Virus record (IMG/VR): IMGVR_UViG_3300031555_005762
Coordinates: 1-64,000 of that record
Reading direction: 5' to 3' (one strand)
From: a virus
Lineage: Duplodnaviria; Caudoviricetes
DNA length: 64,000 bases
The notes beneath the pieces are model-generated. The model searched no databases and was not told the DNA's origin. It saw only the letters and a list, made by a program, of their open reading frames with translations. Positions 7,800 to 64,000 of this stretch are shown here, piece after piece; position 1 is the stretch's first letter; every line of letters starts with the position of its first letter. A program made the translations under genes and the position numbers.

Positions 7800-8093
7800 T
7801 CAGTGATTCTTTTTCAGTATGTACAGGGTATTTCTGGTCAGGATCTGGATTTCTTCGTCTCCGATCTTGCCGTCAATGTTTTCTACAGTGGAGAGATGCA
7901 GGTAGGGGCCTCTGTCGTAAGACTGTCTGTCAAATGCGAAACAGGCTCGTTCGCCTACGCACATGGTTACGATATGTACAGGTTCACCGAGGACTTTTTC
8001 TGCCAGATAATGGGTGCCGCCGGTCTTGGGGGTCATGGCGGTTATGGTATAGGAGGGCATATATGTGGTTCCGTTTTCAGTATTCTCGTTCAT
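7800..8093 (-). CDS. Hypothetical protein
   Basis: 97 aa ORF with RBS. Confidence 0.7.
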   Translation of the reverse strand: MNENTENGTTYMPSYTITAMTPKTGGTHYLAEKVLGEPVHIVTMCVGERACFAFDRQSYDRGPYLHLSTVENIDGKIGDEEIQILTRNTLYILKKNH

Positions 8094-8166
8094 GTATTAC
8101 AAGATTCCTTTCATACTACTTTGGTCAAAATCAAAATTGGCGCAAAAAGAAAACGGGTATTCATTT

Positions 8167-8442
8167 TCAGCGCAGGAGTGCTTCAAAATTGGTGACGATA
8201 TGGCCGTTGTCGGTCTTGGTCTTTTCCAGTTCGGCCTGGGTTTCTTCGATTTCCCGGATGCGCTGGGTATTGGCTTCCTGTTCCCGCTCAATGGCTTCGT
8301 TGATTCCCTTCAGCTCGGCGATGGTGCTCGTGATCATGAACACGGCACTGGCGGAGGCGTTCTGCAGGGACTGGAGCGGGGTCAGCTGGGGCTCTGCCTG
8401 CTTCTTTCTGCGGCGAATCAGGCGTTTCAGTTTCCGGAGCAT
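8167..8442 (-). CDS. Coiled-coil hypothetical protein
   Basis: 91 aa ORF abutting the upstream gene. Confidence 0.75.
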   Translation of the reverse strand: MLRKLKRLIRRRKKQAEPQLTPLQSLQNASASAVFMITSTIAELKGINEAIEREQEANTQRIREIEETQAELEKTKTDNGHIVTNFEALLR

Positions 8443-9057
8443 TTATGCTTTCACTCCTTCCAGAGCCTTCAGAACTTCGTCTGCGATTTCCTGCGTCTTG
8501 ATGGAATTGGGGTTCTTGTCTCCGGAGATTTCTTCAATGATGGCGTAGATTTCGTCCTTATCCTTACCGGAGGAAATCAGGTTTTTACATGTTTCCACGA
8601 TGCTCTTTTTGGTACCCGCCAGCTGCTTCTGGGTTTCGTTCTTCTTTTCATTGGCTTCCTTGGCAGCGCTGGACAGCTCTTCTCCTTCCCACAAGTTCAG
8701 ATCCAGTCCGAATAGGGCCAGGCACTTGACCATACATCTCTTGATGGAGTTATTGACCTGGGTACTGGTGACGGTTTCAGCGGAGACGGCCTGATTCTTA
8801 TGATCCATGACGGCCAGGGTTTCCACCTGCACTTCGTCGCCGATATGTACGGACACTTCTACCCAGCAGGTTCTGCCGTCGGTATGGTACAGATTCTGAT
8901 TTTCGTCCTTCAGGACTTCATATGTAGCGGTGGGATACTTGCGCTTTACGGCTGCCCATGCAGCCGACCAGGGGAGATATGTTTTATTCTGCTTTTTCTT
9001 ATGGCTGCCGGTCATGTCCAGTTCATTCAGGGTTTCAAAGATACTCTTTTCGTTCAT
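8443..9057 (-). CDS. Sak3/DUF1071-like single-strand annealing protein (Rad52 superfamily)
   Basis: TYLPWSAAW, TCWVEVSV, VMDHKN, VNNSIKRCMVKCLALFGLDLNLWEGE pattern. Confidence 0.82.
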   Translation of the reverse strand: MNEKSIFETLNELDMTGSHKKKQNKTYLPWSAAWAAVKRKYPTATYEVLKDENQNLYHTDGRTCWVEVSVHIGDEVQVETLAVMDHKNQAVSAETVTSTQVNNSIKRCMVKCLALFGLDLNLWEGEELSSAAKEANEKKNETQKQLAGTKKSIVETCKNLISSGKDKDEIYAIIEEISGDKNPNSIKTQEIADEVLKALEGVKA

Positions 9058-9287
9058 GCGTTTCGTTCCTTTCGTTCTTTCCGTTTCTTTTCAGGTTTCT
9101 CTTCTCTCCAGATATTCTGGAGTTCTATGGGGTCTTTACTGGTCTGGATTTTCTCGGGCTTGTCTCCCTCAATTTTGTACAGGGTAAACTTAGGCGGATC
9201 TGTGAGAGACTGGGTGATCACGTATTCCAACTCGTCCTCGGCGGACAGAAGTCTGGTGGCGATCTTTTCGGATTTCGGGAATTTCAT
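9054..9287 (-). CDS. Hypothetical protein
   Basis: 77 aa ORF with RBS and ATGA overlap. Confidence 0.7.
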   Translation of the reverse strand: MKFPKSEKIATRLLSAEDELEYVITQSLTDPPKFTLYKIEGDKPEKIQTSKDPIELQNIWREEKPEKKRKERKERNA

Positions 9288-9488
9288 ATGGGCTCCTTTG
9301 GATGTGATTTTACACAGGGGAAAGCTGTCCTGATTTTGGGTTTTGGCATCTCACTGGGTGGCACAAATAAGAGCGATGGATTATCTTTGGGTTGAGGTGC
9401 ATTTTGGACAGGAAAATCCTTGCCAAAGTCCCGGTCGGCATACGAATCTCTAAAATGCTAACCGGGAGATTGGCGTGGAAAAGTCTGG

Positions 9489-12194: not shown

Positions 12195-12784
12195 TATGCT
12201 TCCTCCGTTTCTGCTTCGGTTTCTTCTTCGTCATCGAAGTCGAACATACCATCGAACATATCTTCCATGTCACCGCCCATCATCATAGACATAACCATCA
12301 TATTTTTCATGTCTCCGCCGGTGCCGCCGCCTTTCATCATTTCCCCGAGCATCATCATTTTCATGATCTTCTTCATGCCCTTTTCGCCCTTCAGGCCGCT
12401 GCCGGAGCCGAACATGGAGATGACCTTGCCGTAGAAATAGGTATTGCCCATGAATACATGCCGTTCGGGAAGGATGGTTTTGACACTGGAATCTTCGTAG
12501 TCGATGACGGTGATCTGCTTCTTGCCGGGTTCGATGACGCACTTGGGCTTGCCGCCTACGAGGATGATATCGCCGGCTTCTACTTTATTGGTGGGCATGA
12601 CCATGAAGAATTCGTCCATGGCGTCGCCGCTGAACAGGAAGCCGCTGCAGTTGACGAGATTGCCGGTCTTGAGGTTATAGGACTTATAACCGGTGCTGGT
12701 TTTAACGGCGATATCGCCGTTCATGGAAAGTCTGCACATGCCGGAGCCGAGTTTGCCGCACATGCCGGATGCGATGTTGAACAT
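12194..12784 (-). CDS. Hypothetical protein with Met/Gly-rich and acidic C-terminus
   Basis: 196 aa ORF, TAATG coupling to the vWA gene. Confidence 0.8.
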   Translation of the reverse strand: MFNIASGMCGKLGSGMCRLSMNGDIAVKTSTGYKSYNLKTGNLVNCSGFLFSGDAMDEFFMVMPTNKVEAGDIILVGGKPKCVIEPGKKQITVIDYEDSSVKTILPERHVFMGNTYFYGKVISMFGSGSGLKGEKGMKKIMKMMMLGEMMKGGGTGGDMKNMMVMSMMMGGDMEDMFDGMFDFDDEEETEAETEEA

Positions 12785-56697: not shown

Positions 56698-57585
56698 ATG
56701 AAGATACTTGGCATTTATACGAATAACGACTATCAGGTTGCCATCTTTGAAGACGGGACCAAAATCCGGTACAACAAACTGGAATCATTTCATCCTGTGA
56801 AGCCGGAGTGTATTGATCTGAAAATTACCAATCGCTGTACCGGTACCGGCTGTGCCTACTGCCATGAGGATTCTTCTCCCGACGGACAGCACGGAGACAT
56901 TCTGAATCTTCCCTTTTTGGATTCTTTACTGCCGTACACAGAACTTGCCATCGGCGGTGGGAATCCTTTGGAACATCCGGATCTGACTGCGTTTCTGGCT
57001 GAGTGCCGCAAGCGGAAGATTATTGCCAACATGACAGTGAACCAGAAGCATTTTGTGGACAACTGGATGCAGATAGATTCTATGCTTACTTTTCAGGAAA
57101 TTTACGGGCTCGGTGTATCTGTGACCCGGGTGGACGAAGAGTTTCTAAATTTCGTTCGGTACATGAACGGAATGAATATTGTGTTTCATGTGATCAATGG
57201 CGTGATTGAACCGACAGAGCTGGAGAAGCTGTACGGAATGGGATACAAGATTCTGATTCTTGGGTACAAGCAGTTCCGGCGTGGTGAGAAGTTCTATTCC
57301 CCTGCTGTACAGGCCAGAATGGATATGATGTCTGCGAAACTGCCGGAGATTCTGACGCAGTTTAATGTGGTTAGCTTTGACAATTTGGCGCTGAAACAGC
57401 TTCCGGTAAAAGAACAGATGTCATACGAGGAATGGGAAAAGTTCTATATGGGCGATGACGGTCAGTTTACCATGTACATAGACGCTGTGAAGCAGGAGTT
57501 CGCGAAGAGCTCGACTTCAACGGAACGCTGGCCGATTACCGGCGATATTGCAAAAATGTTTGGGGTGGTGAGAAATCAGTTTTGA
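56698..57585 (+). CDS. Radical SAM enzyme (CX4CX2C)
   Basis: IDLKITNRCTGTGCAYCHEDS; ELAIGGGNPLEHP; NMTVN; GLGVS; HVING. Confidence 0.9.
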   Translation: MKILGIYTNNDYQVAIFEDGTKIRYNKLESFHPVKPECIDLKITNRCTGTGCAYCHEDSSPDGQHGDILNLPFLDSLLPYTELAIGGGNPLEHPDLTAFLAECRKRKIIANMTVNQKHFVDNWMQIDSMLTFQEIYGLGVSVTRVDEEFLNFVRYMNGMNIVFHVINGVIEPTELEKLYGMGYKILILGYKQFRRGEKFYSPAVQARMDMMSAKLPEILTQFNVVSFDNLALKQLPVKEQMSYEEWEKFYMGDDGQFTMYIDAVKQEFAKSSTSTERWPITGDIAKMFGVVRNQF

Positions 57586-58562
57586 AAAATGTGTCACGAG
57601 GTGTGAATGATTTTAGTTCCATATTTCCTCAGTATATGCCATATTTGAAGGATAAAGATGATGGATATAAGCACACACCTCATTCTAATAAGTCTGTGTG
57701 GTGGAAATGTCCCGATTGTGGACATGAATTCAAACAATCTTTTAACAAATTTGTTTCCAAGCTAAATAAATGTCCAGCCTGTTCTGATACAGCGAGCTAT
57801 GCGGTTAAATTCTTATGTTGTGTATTTAACCAGCTTAGTGTTCCGTTCCAGATGGAAAAGAGCTTTGACTGGCTACCGCGGCGCAGGTATGATTTTTGGC
57901 TCCCTGAACAAGATGTAATTATCGAGATACATGGCAAACAGCATTATTCTATCGGTGATCCTTGGAACTCTGACGGCAAGCAAAAATACATAGATTTGAT
58001 GAAGGAAGAAAAGGCTTACGAAAATGGATATACAGGAAGGTACATTGTTTTAATGTATGATGTGTCCGGAGACGGAAGTCGTTTTGTTACACAAATACTT
58101 GGCAGTAATCTACAGACTATGTTTTCGATGGAAAATGTAGACTGGTCTGCCTGTAACCAATATGCTATTTTAAGCAATTCAGTTAAAGAGGTATGTGACA
58201 TTTATAATTCTGGAGTCGTAGATCTAACTCAAATCTGCCGCATGACGCATTATTCTTCTCTGAACACGATTCGTGAAAAGTTGAAGAAAGGCGCTTTATT
58301 GGGGTGGTGTGATTACTCTGCCGCTGTGGCATTGCAGAATGCTCACCGTAAGAGCGGAGATCATGTTTTAGCGACTATGTGTAATTCCGTAGTGTGTTTT
58401 GACCTGGACGGGAATAAATTATGTACCTATCCAAGTCTACAGGAAGCTCAGCGAAGATGCGGTATATCTCACATTTGGGAATGTTGTGTTGGGAAAAGGG
58501 AGACTGCGGGAGGTTTTCGCTGGATGTATGAAAAAGATTGTATAGTGAGAGGTGAATGTTGA
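57582..58562 (+). CDS. Free-standing homing endonuclease-like protein (zinc ribbon, Vsr/DUF559-like PD-(D/E)XK, NUMOD1)
   Basis: VWWKCPDCGHEF...CPAC; RYDFWL...IIEIHGKQHY; TYPSLQEAQR...TAGGFRWMY; AT-rich. Confidence 0.8.
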   Translation: MKNVSRGVNDFSSIFPQYMPYLKDKDDGYKHTPHSNKSVWWKCPDCGHEFKQSFNKFVSKLNKCPACSDTASYAVKFLCCVFNQLSVPFQMEKSFDWLPRRRYDFWLPEQDVIIEIHGKQHYSIGDPWNSDGKQKYIDLMKEEKAYENGYTGRYIVLMYDVSGDGSRFVTQILGSNLQTMFSMENVDWSACNQYAILSNSVKEVCDIYNSGVVDLTQICRMTHYSSLNTIREKLKKGALLGWCDYSAAVALQNAHRKSGDHVLATMCNSVVCFDLDGNKLCTYPSLQEAQRRCGISHIWECCVGKRETAGGFRWMYEKDCIVRGEC

Positions 58563-60188: not shown

Positions 60189-63100
60189 TTGACAAGCAGA
60201 CCTTTATATACATATAAGTTCAAGTCTTCCAGATTGAAGGAAGCTAAATATGATCTGAATATATCTTTCAAGGAAGCAAAAAAGAGAAATGAAGTAATCT
60301 CGCTCGCTGATTCTCAGATTCTGCGAAGCATCCGGTACATACAGGGGCGAGAGATCGATTACGAGGAACTGGAACGGCTGATCTCCAGAAGAGATTATCT
60401 CCGGCGGCAGAAGGGTGCTCGAAGAGAGTATACTGAGTTACAGGAAACGCAGGATAAGATTAATGATATGCTGATGGTTCCTGAATATGTGACGGTTTTT
60501 ATAGAGGAAAGCTCACATTATGAGTATATTTTCAGAAACGGCATTCGCCTAAATGGAAAGACATACAAACGCCTATCTTGTTCTGCCGGTCAGGCAAGAA
60601 ACTCGACAGTGGTTCTATGTGATACTGAAATCATAGACAGGCTCAAAGAGATCTTAAACAATGGGCGTGATATGTCGAAGCCGCTGGCCCCCAGTAAGTT
60701 CAATGCATATTTTGGACTCGCTGGATCATCAACTCATATTGTGTCCGAACCAAAGTTTATTGTTATCCGGGACTATGAAAACACAACGTCATTCATGGCG
60801 AACTATCTTACGGAAAATCCGGACTGGGACAGAGACGACACGCTGGATGTACGGATGATCGAAGATATGCCCATGAACCGCACGGACGGCATGGGATTGA
60901 TTTCTCCGGAACTGTCCGAGAAATGGGCCAAGGAACTGGGTCTTGATTACATACCGGCGCAGTGGTGTATCCGTCAGTCCTTTATCAAAGGAATGGTTTG
61001 CACCTTCCCTATCCATCAGTTCTGCGAAGAAGTGGCTGGCGGGAATTATATGGTGGAAACGATCTACAAAGACGAAGCCGGTAATCCGATTGTGGCTGAC
61101 CTGCGGGATTACGATATGATTCTGACGGAGTCTCAGTTTAAGCTGTGGGACAGCTACCCTTCTCTGGATGTGTACATAGAAAATTATCATAAGAATCACC
61201 TGTACTGGGGCGTCAGCCAGTTTACACCGAAACAGGCCAAAGATACACTTACACTGAATTATCAGTTTATACAGACGCTTGATCTGGATGAGGAAGGTGT
61301 AAGAGAACTGTGCGGGCAGTTTGTTGACTGGATCAGCGGTGTGTCCTGTGACAATTATTCGTATATGCTTCTTTATCTGATGGGTGTTGGAGACGACGAG
61401 GACAAGTTGCGAAACTGGATGCGAAGCAGCGACAACTGGTGGCTGAAGTCTCTGATGATGTGTCCAGACCTGATGAATGATAAGTACACACGGGCAAAAA
61501 TCCGGGATCTGATACGGAACCGGATTCAGAACGGCTGCATGGGTGAGATTTGTGTAGATGGAAACTTCCAGGTGATGGTATCGGATCCGTATGGGTTTAT
61601 GCAGCATGCCTGCGGTCTTCCGGTGACGGGGCTTCTGGGCAAGGACGAATTCTATTGCAGCTACTGGAATGAGCGTGGTGTTACGCAGGTGGATTCCATG
61701 CGATCGCCTCTTACATATCGCAGTGAGCACGTTATTGCGAATCTGGTGAAGAATGAAGAAACGGAGAAGTGGTATCGGTATTGTTATCTTGGGTTTATTC
61801 TGAATTATCATGGACATGATACAGTGATGTACGCCGGGTCGGATCAATCGGGTTCTGCCTTATGGCATAACATGGTGAACCAGCAGAGCTGGGTGTCTGC
61901 ATACGCAGGCTAACGGGGGACAGCTACGGGCGCAAGCCTATGCCAATCCCGTGCGAAATTTGGTGTTATATCAGAGAATGGGAGGTTAATGGAATATAGA
62001 GAAATCCCTTTTTTAAGAGGGTATAAGATCAGTGAATACGGAGATGTTTTATCCAAACGGAATGGGAAACCATTAAGAATCTATGCAAAACCATTAGGTG
62101 ACGATAGATGTTGTATCCGTGAAACGTATTATCTCATATCAGAGCTTGTTGCATCAACTTATCTTGGTGAAATGGATTTGGATGTTTATTGTGTATGTCA
62201 TAAAGATGGAAATCAACATAATAACCATGTATCCAATCTTGAGTGGCATAAACGAAAGAAAGATTTGATATATAAACCTATACCAGGATATCCTAATTAT
62301 GAGATATCTGAGCTGGGCGATGTATATAATCTTGTGTATCGAAAGCATATGGGAGCCCATCCCGATCAGGACGGTTACTATAAAGTTCATATATCTAATA
62401 ATGGTAAGACAGACACTTGGTTCGTACACCGTCTTGTAGCTCTTACATATTTAGAGAAGCCGGAAGGTTGCAATGTTGTAAATCATTTAGATTCTGATAG
62501 GAAGAACAATGATTACAGGAACTTGGAATGGACTACTGCTCAAGGGAATTATGAGCATGGTATGCTTTATGGTTATAATCAGCCGCAAGGTGAAAATAAT
62601 CCTCGTAGTAAATTAACAGAAGATCAAGTAAAAGACATCCGTTATTTATTTTCGAATGGGTACCGTGTAGCTGATATCCAAAAGAAATATGATTTTGTAC
62701 GTTGGGAAGAAATAAAGAATATTGTGACTTATAGAGCGTGGAAAAACGTAAACTGATCTAACACCAATAAACGTGTAACGACTATCCCTTGGCTCCCCGG
62801 CTAATAAATGGAGCAATAGGAGTACGGCGGCCGCGAGGTCGTGGGTGAGAACCCCTTAAATGGAAGTGCCATGCCTCAACAATGTTGAGTGAAGATATAG
62901 TCTACTCCGTGGGTATGTACCCAGAAATATCCCGAAAGGGACGGTATAAAGGTTCGATCAAATGGTCGCGCTGCGTAGCGATGCGCAGATGAAAATGTGG
63001 TGAACCTGTAAATACAGGGTGTCGCCGGGACGGTTAGGAACCGCAGGAAATGGCGGTTTATCCGGCGGCTGACAGGGGAGGCTGAATGAAGTATGCTAAT

Positions 63101-64000
63101 CCTGTGGCAAGCGTGGAAACACGAAGCTCAAACGACTAACCCTTGGCCAGATGGCAATAGGTGTACGGCCCCGGTGAAATTCCGGGGCGGGTGAAATTCC
63201 CTTAATTGGAAGTGCCACACACCTCTCAGAGGTGATGATATAGTCTAATCCCGATGGAAACATCATGAAATACGGCGAAAGCCGGGGTTCAATTGTATGA
63301 TATAGTAGCCAGTACATCAAACAAAACCATGATTAACGGCGTATACCGGAATGAACTTCCTGTTGTATACGATCCTCCTAAACCCAAGAAGATACTCTTT
63401 ACTGATGAAGACCTGTATCGGGCAGACACATTCGGTTTCGGGTCTATTATCGGGAGTATTACCAACAAGAGTTCTATTGCCTATTCCCTGCTCCCTCTCA
63501 TTGAACGGGACTATGGGAAAGACAGTGAGGAATACAAGCTGACTGTGTCGAGATTACAGCAGTGCTGTGCGGCACAGTCGAGACAGATCGATAAAATTTT
63601 GTCGCTTTACGCAGCGATGCGTATCGAACAATGTGGTGAACCTGCAGATGCAGGGTGTCCGCTTTACGTATAGGATCAACAGGAAATGGTTGATAAAAAG
63701 CGGGCTGACCGGGGAAACCGTAGCGGGTCGTGCCGTCGGCAATCCGGTGCTTGAAAACAAGTCCAACGATCATCCCTTTGGCCGTGGAATTCGGCAACAG
63801 GAGTAGGGCTGTCAGGCATGGCAGCGGGTGAGAGTCCCTTAAATCGAAGCGCCACACAACTCTTTGAGTTGATGATATGATCTACACCCTGCCCCGTCCG
63901 GGGGCGAAATACCGGGAAACCGGGGGTATTCAGGAAAACGAAGATCGGACAGGTTGTCAAGGGTATTCCGAAGGTTTGGATTGAAAAGCAGGACGATGAG
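60189..64000 (+). CDS. YonO-like single-subunit (RdRP-fold, two-barrel) DNA-dependent RNA polymerase; spliced from exons 60189-61844, 62953-62958, 63296-63592 and 63935 onward
   Basis: TDGMGLIS, CIRQ..IKG, RSP motifs. In-frame splicing yields AGSD-FD-YDIVASTSN (catalytic DxDxD) and RQID-KTKIG; exon lengths 1656, 6, 297 and 66+ nt are all multiples of 3. Confidence 0.88.
61845..62952 (+). mobile_element. Group I intron 1 (carries an HNH endonuclease ORF)
   Basis: Exon ends in U, intron ends in G; AATCCCGTG; P7 ACGACTAT (near 62779) pairs with AAGATATAGTCTA (near 62892). Confidence 0.9.
61989..62756 (+). CDS. Intron-encoded tandem NUMOD4-HNH homing endonuclease
   Basis: Two HNH units (CHKDGNQHNNHVSNLEW; NHLDSDRKNNDYRNLEW) and C-terminal GENNPRSKLTEDQV. 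Confidence 0.9.
   Translation: MEYREIPFLRGYKISEYGDVLSKRNGKPLRIYAKPLGDDRCCIRETYYLISELVASTYLGEMDLDVYCVCHKDGNQHNNHVSNLEWHKRKKDLIYKPIPGYPNYEISELGDVYNLVYRKHMGAHPDQDGYYKVHISNNGKTDTWFVHRLVALTYLEKPEGCNVVNHLDSDRKNNDYRNLEWTTAQGNYEHGMLYGYNQPQGENNPRSKLTEDQVKDIRYLFSNGYRVADIQKKYDFVRWEEIKNIVTYRAWKNVN
62959..63295 (+). mobile_element. Group I intron 2 (ORF-less, 337 nt)
   Basis: P1 CGAU|C pairs with GGUCG including the U-G wobble; P7 ACGACTAA / GATATAGTCTA; terminal G at 63295. Confidence 0.9.
63593..63934 (+). mobile_element. Group I intron 3 (ORF-less, 342 nt)
   Basis: 5' part homologous to intron 2 (GCGATGCG...AATGTGGTGAACCTG..A..CAGGGTGTC); P7 covaries to GATCA / TGATC; terminal G at 63934. Confidence 0.88.

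Follow-up and report, generated by a model that had tools for sequence, protein, structure and literature searches.

Three predicted group I introns, two of them six nucleotides apart, in the active-site region of a YonO-like phage RNA polymerase gene

We analysed the first 64,000 bases (hereafter the window) of the 73,366-bp IMG/VR viral contig IMGVR_UViG_3300031555_005762, a metagenomic assembly with a completeness estimate of 43%. Near the end of the window lies a gene that is predicted, from homology, to encode a YonO-like single-subunit RNA polymerase cut by three group I introns, the first two of which leave between them an exon of only six nucleotides (Table 1). The gene spans 60189 to contig position 64753 on the plus strand and starts with TTG. 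Exon 1 matches the Pfam family RdRP (PF05183, E 7e-12) and phrog_8308 (E 5e-117), and the relatives of the polymerase among annotated phages include YonO of SPbeta. Nearest of these is a protein of 924 aa from Bacillus phage BUCT082, which is uninterrupted and to which the exon 1 product is 53% identical. PF05183 covers residues 107-680 of the uninterrupted protein of a related locus, L007, and nothing in the PDB matched the sequence of an uninterrupted homologue. With its RdRP and YonO homology and a DxDxD triad of aspartates (Asp), the gene has the marks of a YonO-like two-barrel RNA polymerase. SPbeta YonO is the same kind of two-barrel enzyme with the same triad, but its gene is uninterrupted; it transcribes the SPbeta late genes, and its triple Asp-to-Asn mutant is inactive (PMC5467207). 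Among relatives, the triad is retained in 145 of 149 uninterrupted spans, and of the four spans that deviate, three read through into introns.

When the BUCT082 protein was compared with the contig by tblastn, residues 1-550 matched 60189-61844, residues 553-648 matched 63296-63592, with the alignment extending 3 nt more, to 63595, and residues 648-924 matched 63935-64726. F551 and D552 are the only BUCT082 residues for which the long exons offer no match, and the hexamer TTCGAT encodes exactly these two, in frame: where BUCT082 reads AGSDFDYDII, the window reads AGSD, 1108 nt, TTCGAT, 337 nt and YDIV. Joining 60189-61844, 62953-62958, 63296-63592 and 63935 onward gives a single open frame of 925 aa with its stop at 64751-64753, whose product is 48% identical to the BUCT082 protein and collinear with it across 917 of the 925 residues. 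Across the first two joints the ligated transcript is predicted to read GGGUCGGAU-UUCGAU-UAUGAU, and the DFDYD of the polymerase aligns with the sole DxDxD of SPbeta YonO, DNDGD at 535-539. Omission of the micro-exon would leave an open frame of 923 aa reading GSDYDIV, one Asp fewer. A first-pass annotation, made from the letters of the window, had proposed the exon, intron and micro-exon coordinates adopted here, had placed each catalytic Asp on a separate exon and had pointed out that skipping of the micro-exon would be in frame; all of this is borne out by the sequence and by the comparisons with BUCT082 and YonO. Its micro-exon with flanking introns stood as well, while its count of three exons did not, as the gene has four exons and a third intron 297 nt downstream of intron 2.

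Table 1. Predicted features of the polymerase gene and insertion sites of the intron family in related loci (L numbers are our handles for these loci; omega-G, terminal G of an intron)
Feature	Position	Strand	Remarks
Exon 1	60189..61844	+	552 codons; ends GGG TCG GAT, GAT = first catalytic Asp
Intron 1 (site A)	61845..62952	+	1108 nt, td-like group I; omega-G 62952
HNH homing-endonuclease ORF	61989..62756	+	255 aa; in terminal loop of intron 1 P6a
Micro-exon TTCGAT (Phe-Asp)	62953..62958	+	second catalytic Asp; last 4 nt = exon strand of intron 2 P1
Intron 2 (site B)	62959..63295	+	337 nt, ORF-less group I; omega-G 63295
Exon 3	63296..63592	+	99 codons; starts TAT GAT (third catalytic Asp), ends ATC GAT
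Intron 3 (site C)	63593..63934	+	342 nt, ORF-less, same family as introns 1 and 2; omega-G 63934
Exon 4 (start)	63935..64000	+	runs beyond the window to stop at contig 64751-64753
Site Z	6 nt upstream of A, after GAT		L057, L193
Site A	after first Asp codon		L116/L117, L085, L059, L082, L189
Site B	after second Asp codon		L004-L006, L055, L144, L145
Site C	after QID codons (ATC GAT)		many loci, including L023, L084, L086, L116/L117, L144/L145

The Rfam group I model (RF00028, Intron_gpI; gathering score 50) appears to fit this intron family poorly: it matched intron 2 at 62949-63267 with 35.8 bits (E 7e-7), under the gathering score, gave a weak match of 12.4 bits to the 3' part of intron 1, and did not match intron 3. 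We built two covariance models from the introns of relatives only, R2 for the 5' domain (from exon position -8 to P6) and R1 for the 3' domain (from J6/7 to the last base). R2 matched the 64-kb window at 61837-61958 (E 9e-16), 62951-63111 (E 6e-30) and 63585-63754 (E 2e-30), and R1 at 62777-62952 (E 4e-16), 63131-63295 (E 1e-17) and 63765-63934 (E 3e-15). Beyond these three 5' and three 3' domains the window holds no other R1 or R2 match, and no additional family intron came up when the whole 73-kb contig was scanned for motifs. Intron 1 matches both models over their full length, and the R1 matches end at G62952, G63295 and G63934, precisely the terminal Gs demanded by the reading frame. Along the DNA the order is 5' domain, open reading frame (ORF), 3' domain, six bases, 5' domain, 3' domain; since the domains are not interleaved, introns 1 and 2 are two complete ribozymes, neither a composite intron nor a twintron. 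A twintron was rejected on the same ground, and on the further one that intron 2 starts 6 nt past the terminal G of intron 1. The first-pass annotation had said that its proposal would fall if 61845-63295 behaved as one intron, and this is not what the domain models show.

The secondary structure was taken from nine ORF-less members of the family, introns 2 and 3 of the window included, which were aligned over their whole length and folded with RNAalifold, with P7 and P8 added by hand. In the 64 pairs of this alignment, 93.2% of the cells hold standard pairs, compared with 36-45% once the partners are shifted by 1-3 columns, and double-sided changes are found in 42 of the 64; the observed values were reached by none of 500 shuffles. 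Covariation supports P3, P4, P6, P7, P8 and P9 across the nine members. It is visible among the three introns of the window as well, in P3 (CAUGGU/GCCAUG and UGUGGU/GCCACA), in P4 (ACGGGG/UCCCGU, ACAGGG/UCCUGU and ACCGGG/UCCGGU) and in P7 (GACUA/UAGUC and GAUCA/UGAUC). An alternative in which P4 paired with the 3' strand of the hairpin that follows P3 was dropped, as the third pair covaries only in the assigned P4. P1 of intron 2 consists of C62955-G62968, G62956-C62967, A62957-U62966, the splice-site wobble U62958-G62965 and C62959-G62964, and the helix forms as the first-pass annotation had described it, CGAU↓C with GGUCG (arrow, splice site). Such U-G wobbles are present at all three 5' splice sites (U61844-G61852, U62958-G62965, and U63592 with a G of UUGUCG), and among the site-A introns P1 covaries with the exon (GGAU/GUUC, CAGAU/GUCUG, GUGAU/GUCAC). 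By their core, the P1 wobble and the omega-G, the three introns of the window are placed in group I and would be self-splicing.

For intron 1, P1 is made of G61841-C61855, G61842-U61854, A61843-U61853, U61844-G61852 and C61845-G61851, and the remaining helices were read by hand from the sequence: P2 61856-59/61864-67, P3 61871-77/62867-73, P4 61913-18/61947-52, P7 62780-84/62898-902, P8 62875-80/62884-89 and P9 62907-09/62942-44, with P6a (61960-68/62759-67) forming a 9-bp stem that closes the ORF loop. The product of this ORF matches Pfam HNH_3 (E 1e-11) and NUMOD4 (E 6e-9) as well as phrog_959 (E 1e-50), and has 51% full-length identity with the ORF product of the L085 site-A intron. By its domains and its position in the P6a loop, it is predicted to be an intron-encoded HNH homing endonuclease. 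The J6/7-P7 sequence AACGACUAUCCC and the J8/7-P7 sequence GAUAUAGUC are what we take to be the td-like traits of the family, and we presume the same of three further points of likeness to T4 td, namely that P7 and the 3' strand of P3 are set apart by an insertion, that the P6a loop harbours an endonuclease ORF and that the intron lies in a conserved catalytic region. By blastn, the cores are similar to introns in genes of Staphylococcus Twort-like phages. The insertion between P7 and the P3 3' strand, a candidate for the P7.1/P7.2 extension of subgroup IA, measures 60-95 nt in most members and is much reduced in two; it holds at least one conserved hairpin, GGG/CCC (alignment columns 269-271 with 279-281), in which one pair is double-changed. 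Moreover, every family member carries two extra covarying hairpins between the P3 5' strand and P4 (63005-63069 and 63641-63705 in the window; alignment columns 60-124). We know of no peripheral helices at this place in td-like introns. These hairpins, together with the sub-gathering Rfam score, set the family apart from T4 td and the other phage IA introns, and the former may explain the latter.

The occupancy of the polymerase gene was followed through 195 related loci (L004-L198, 2.17 Mb), of which 83 are from IMG/VR, 77 from other metagenomes and 35 from genomes, with some duplication across collections; related prophage genes occur in Lachnospiraceae, other Clostridia and Bacilli. A census with R1 gave 28 introns in 22 loci, all of them inside the polymerase gene and none within 290 nt of another, which leaves 173 of the 195 loci without an intron of the family. 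Insertion takes place at sites Z, A, B and C, each directly after a GAT codon, with Z, A and B spaced 6 nt apart. Sites A and C are combined in L116/L117 and L189, and sites B and C in L144 and L145. The first-pass annotation had proposed to compare intron occupancy in relatives, and this comparison gave A without B, B without A, or neither, with both occupied only in the window. The closest relatives, L116/L117 (78% protein identity) and L085 (72%), have a site-A intron and no site-B intron. Their introns begin almost like that of the window, with GGGTCGGAT before the splice site and CAATCGG after it, and are followed directly by TTTGATTACGAC, so that F-D-Y-D is continuous in these genes. Furthermore, TTCGAT precedes the intron in all site-B alleles, while TTTGAT follows the intron in the site-A-only alleles that were checked (L116, L085, L059 and L082); TTCGAT suits P1 of intron 2 because its C pairs with a G of the guide sequence. 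A search of IMG/VR for the pattern of a site-A intron end, TTYGAT and a site-B intron start returned 21 matches, which we regard as chance since none holds an intron of the family.

Some individual loci deserve mention. The site-Z intron lies at 3612-4466 in L057 and at about 7619-8563 in L193, where the exon after the intron is apparently one base out of frame. In L067 and L070 (about 8017-9334) a family intron apparently sits a few bases upstream of site C, after an exon that would end in AGACAGAT G; no clear U-G wobble was seen in the register tried. The near-identical phages L144 (7672-9228) and L145 (5937-7522) carry the HNH ORF reciprocally, in the site-B intron of the former and in the site-C intron of the latter and not vice versa, which illustrates cleanly how an endonuclease gene is gained or lost.

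A tree of the intron cores bears on how the two-intron arrangement arose. Intron 1 clusters with the site-A introns of L116 and L085 (support 92/84), and intron 2 clusters with the site-C introns (79/77), apart from the other site-B introns. Monophyly of the site-B introns is rejected (approximately unbiased test, p 0.0001), and intron 2 has the P2 hairpin that is typical of site-C introns and absent from the other site-B introns. In the window phage, the 5' exon ends in ATCGAT at site C and in TTCGAT at site B. Intron 2 may therefore have come from a site-C-type intron by ectopic insertion, a placement to which the tree lends moderate support. The site-Z intron of L057 clusters in turn with the site-B intron of L055 (98/96), and since introns at different sites in related phages thus group together, switching of sites seems to be common in the family.

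Taken together, we consider it very probable that the micro-exon is a by-product of two mobile introns lodged in neighbouring sites of a very conserved target, and not a regulatory device. Two independent and complete introns of the td-like family would here occupy adjacent sites in the stretch that codes for the metal-binding Asp triad, out of at least four sites, each after GAT, that the family uses in the polymerase gene; lying only 6 bp away, intron 2 would be carried along by co-conversion at each homing of intron 1. Presence and absence in relatives follow the pattern of mobile introns and not that of a conserved regulatory feature. Judged from the sites occupied, the Asp-triad stretch of YonO-like polymerase genes is an intron hot spot.

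To yield an active polymerase, the transcript would have to undergo three separate self-splicing events and keep UUCGAU. P1 of intron 2 uses the last four bases of the micro-exon and the intron's own first base, and because it lies wholly in those bases it is present in the precursor whatever intron 1 does. For intron 1, a P10 in the canonical register fails at the third pair, and the micro-exon UCGAU can instead pair with AUCGG (61847-61851) in the intron 1 P1 loop, in a P10-like helix shifted by one base (predicted -3.6 kcal/mol). Inspected by eye, a register shifted by 1-2 bases pairs in the window and in L116, L085 and L082, and a different one in L059, and the third exon base of the shifted P10 varies among the site-A introns of L116, L085 and L082 (C-G, U-G, U-A). 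P10 of intron 1 and P1 of intron 2 would thus compete for the same CGAU, and both could not form at once; moreover, only two bases separate the terminal G of intron 1 from P1 of intron 2. On these two grounds splicing of intron 2 first looks easier. P10 is dispensable in many group I introns, and for that reason a strict splicing order need not follow. At the same time, the 5' splice sites of introns 1 and 2 both read GAU↓C, and the predicted energies of the guides with the two sites (-3.2 and -4.1 kcal/mol for the cross pairings, -3.0 and -4.1 for the cognate ones) do not separate cognate from cross pairings and say nothing firm on splicing order. Shared GAU↓C sites and cross-pairing guides make some exon skipping plausible, as in two known cases: orf142 of phage Twort, which has three group I introns with a 23-nt exon between introns 2 and 3, and the 23S rRNA of Coxiella burnetii, with a 34-nt exon between two group I introns (PMC10136302). 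Skipping is documented in both (PMC10136302), which agrees with the precedent that the first-pass annotation had cited from Twort.

Several of our own results weigh against reading the micro-exon as the by-product of two working introns. In introns 1 and 2, P1 is a short helix of four exon pairs plus one, and accurate splicing is not guaranteed, because each guide pairs about equally well with the other 5' splice site. At the gathering threshold, Rfam gave no match to the family introns of the window and of 12 related loci, and the placement of intron 2 with the site-C introns has moderate support only. Furthermore, the contig that carries the gene is metagenomic and about 43% complete, and splicing, its order and the retention of the micro-exon are all things that we infer from sequence.

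Among the other explanations, the one that survives best holds that the micro-exon couples the two ribozymes, either by imposing an obligatory order of splicing or by diverting part of the transcripts to an inactive skipped polymerase, so that the yield of active enzyme would depend on folding conditions. Such coupling would be compatible with a family that moves between GAU↓ sites and with an origin of intron 2 at site C; we hold it to be rather unlikely.

Less probable still is regulated exon skipping, in which the relative rates of the introns would determine the proportions of active (DFDYD) and inactive (D-YD) polymerase and, through them, the timing of late transcription. The skipped product of 923 aa is in frame, GAU↓C is found at both 5' splice sites with guides that pair with either at similar predicted energy, skipping of short exons is documented for Twort orf142 and Coxiella (PMC10136302), and YonO does transcribe the late genes of SPbeta (PMC5467207). 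The arrangement is, however, confined to 1 of about 195 loci; the closest relatives, at 78% and 72% identity, have the site-A and not the site-B intron, and in 173 of the 195 the family is absent altogether. Moreover, skipping would merely waste transcripts, and no sensor element was seen. The suggestion of the first-pass annotation, that splicing order or efficiency could gate late transcription, is therefore not supported, given the rarity of the arrangement and its mobile-intron pattern.

Very improbable, in turn, is that the gene is dead, or that 61845-63295 is removed as one composite intron with loss of TTCGAT, which would leave the polymerase short of one Asp. This reading could draw on the P1 of intron 2, with its mere four exon pairs, and on the 6-nt spacing of the ribozymes, which could hinder independent folding. 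Against it, all four exons stay open and match intact homologues collinearly, and the hexamer supplies exactly both absent residues in frame. Furthermore, the cores of both introns are complete and covarying, with the U-G wobble and the terminal G retained, and relatives with intact genes have the one or the other intron singly at the corresponding site. Least likely of all is a chimera, in which the assembler merged co-existing intron-A and intron-B strains: the contig is metagenomic and both single-intron alleles exist in nature, but these alleles share only the six bases TTCGAT at the joint, far under any assembly word length, the path from the end of intron 1 to the start of intron 2 would need reads from real molecules, and intron 2, with its P2 hairpin and its grouping with site-C introns, is unlike the site-B introns of other loci.

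Two mobile introns in neighbouring sites, as we prefer to read the locus, would make it an extreme phage example of a known short-exon arrangement and not a new principle. With Twort orf142 and Coxiella it shares tandem group I introns in one phage or bacterial gene, a very short exon and introns that are related within the gene. It differs in that its exon has 6 nt, about a quarter of that of Twort, codes for an active-site residue and gives its last 4 nt as the entire exon strand of the downstream P1. In organelles, mini-exons of fewer than four codons between group I introns have been called regular (PMC10352661), and placozoan cox1 has a 1-nt exon between group I introns (PMC5436844). In mitochondrial cox1 of placozoans and fungi, as here, a few nucleotides for an essential residue were isolated between two group I introns by intron insertion; those are organellar genes with group IB introns that are often protein-assisted, whereas the window has a phage gene with td-like (IA-type) introns. 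The first-pass annotation had called a two-codon exon inside an active site striking; for a phage it is indeed extreme, though the organellar mini-exons and the 1-nt exon temper this. Mobile introns are on record in phage RNA polymerase genes, for example 201phi2-1 gp273/274 (PMC2919709). Our searches of the open-access literature brought up no description of introns inside YonO-like genes or their Asp triad, and no phage or bacterial exon as short as this one.

The locus can be considered a natural test of how close two self-splicing ribozymes can sit, with the substrate helix of the downstream one taking four of the six exon bases, and it raises the question whether two ribozymes so near each other act independently in folding and splicing, follow a fixed order, or skip the exon between them. 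The gene family could be useful for studies of intron site change and of endonuclease gene gain and loss, because it offers three sites 6 nt apart and a fourth downstream, with related introns at different sites in related phages. It also carries a warning for annotation, since gene callers will end the polymerase at intron 1 and so leave out its active site.

Two further elements were noted near polymerase genes. In L004, about 3 kb downstream of the polymerase gene, a drum RNA (Rfam, 88.5 bits) is followed directly by a DUF3800-XI RNA (62.5 bits) at 12485-12638. In the window, a free-standing ORF of 326 aa lies at 57582-58562 on the plus strand, about 1.6 kb upstream of the polymerase gene; in its product, a treble-clef zinc ribbon (DUF4379) is accompanied by a weak match to NUMOD1, sub-threshold in Pfam, and by PHROG matches to homing or HNH endonucleases.

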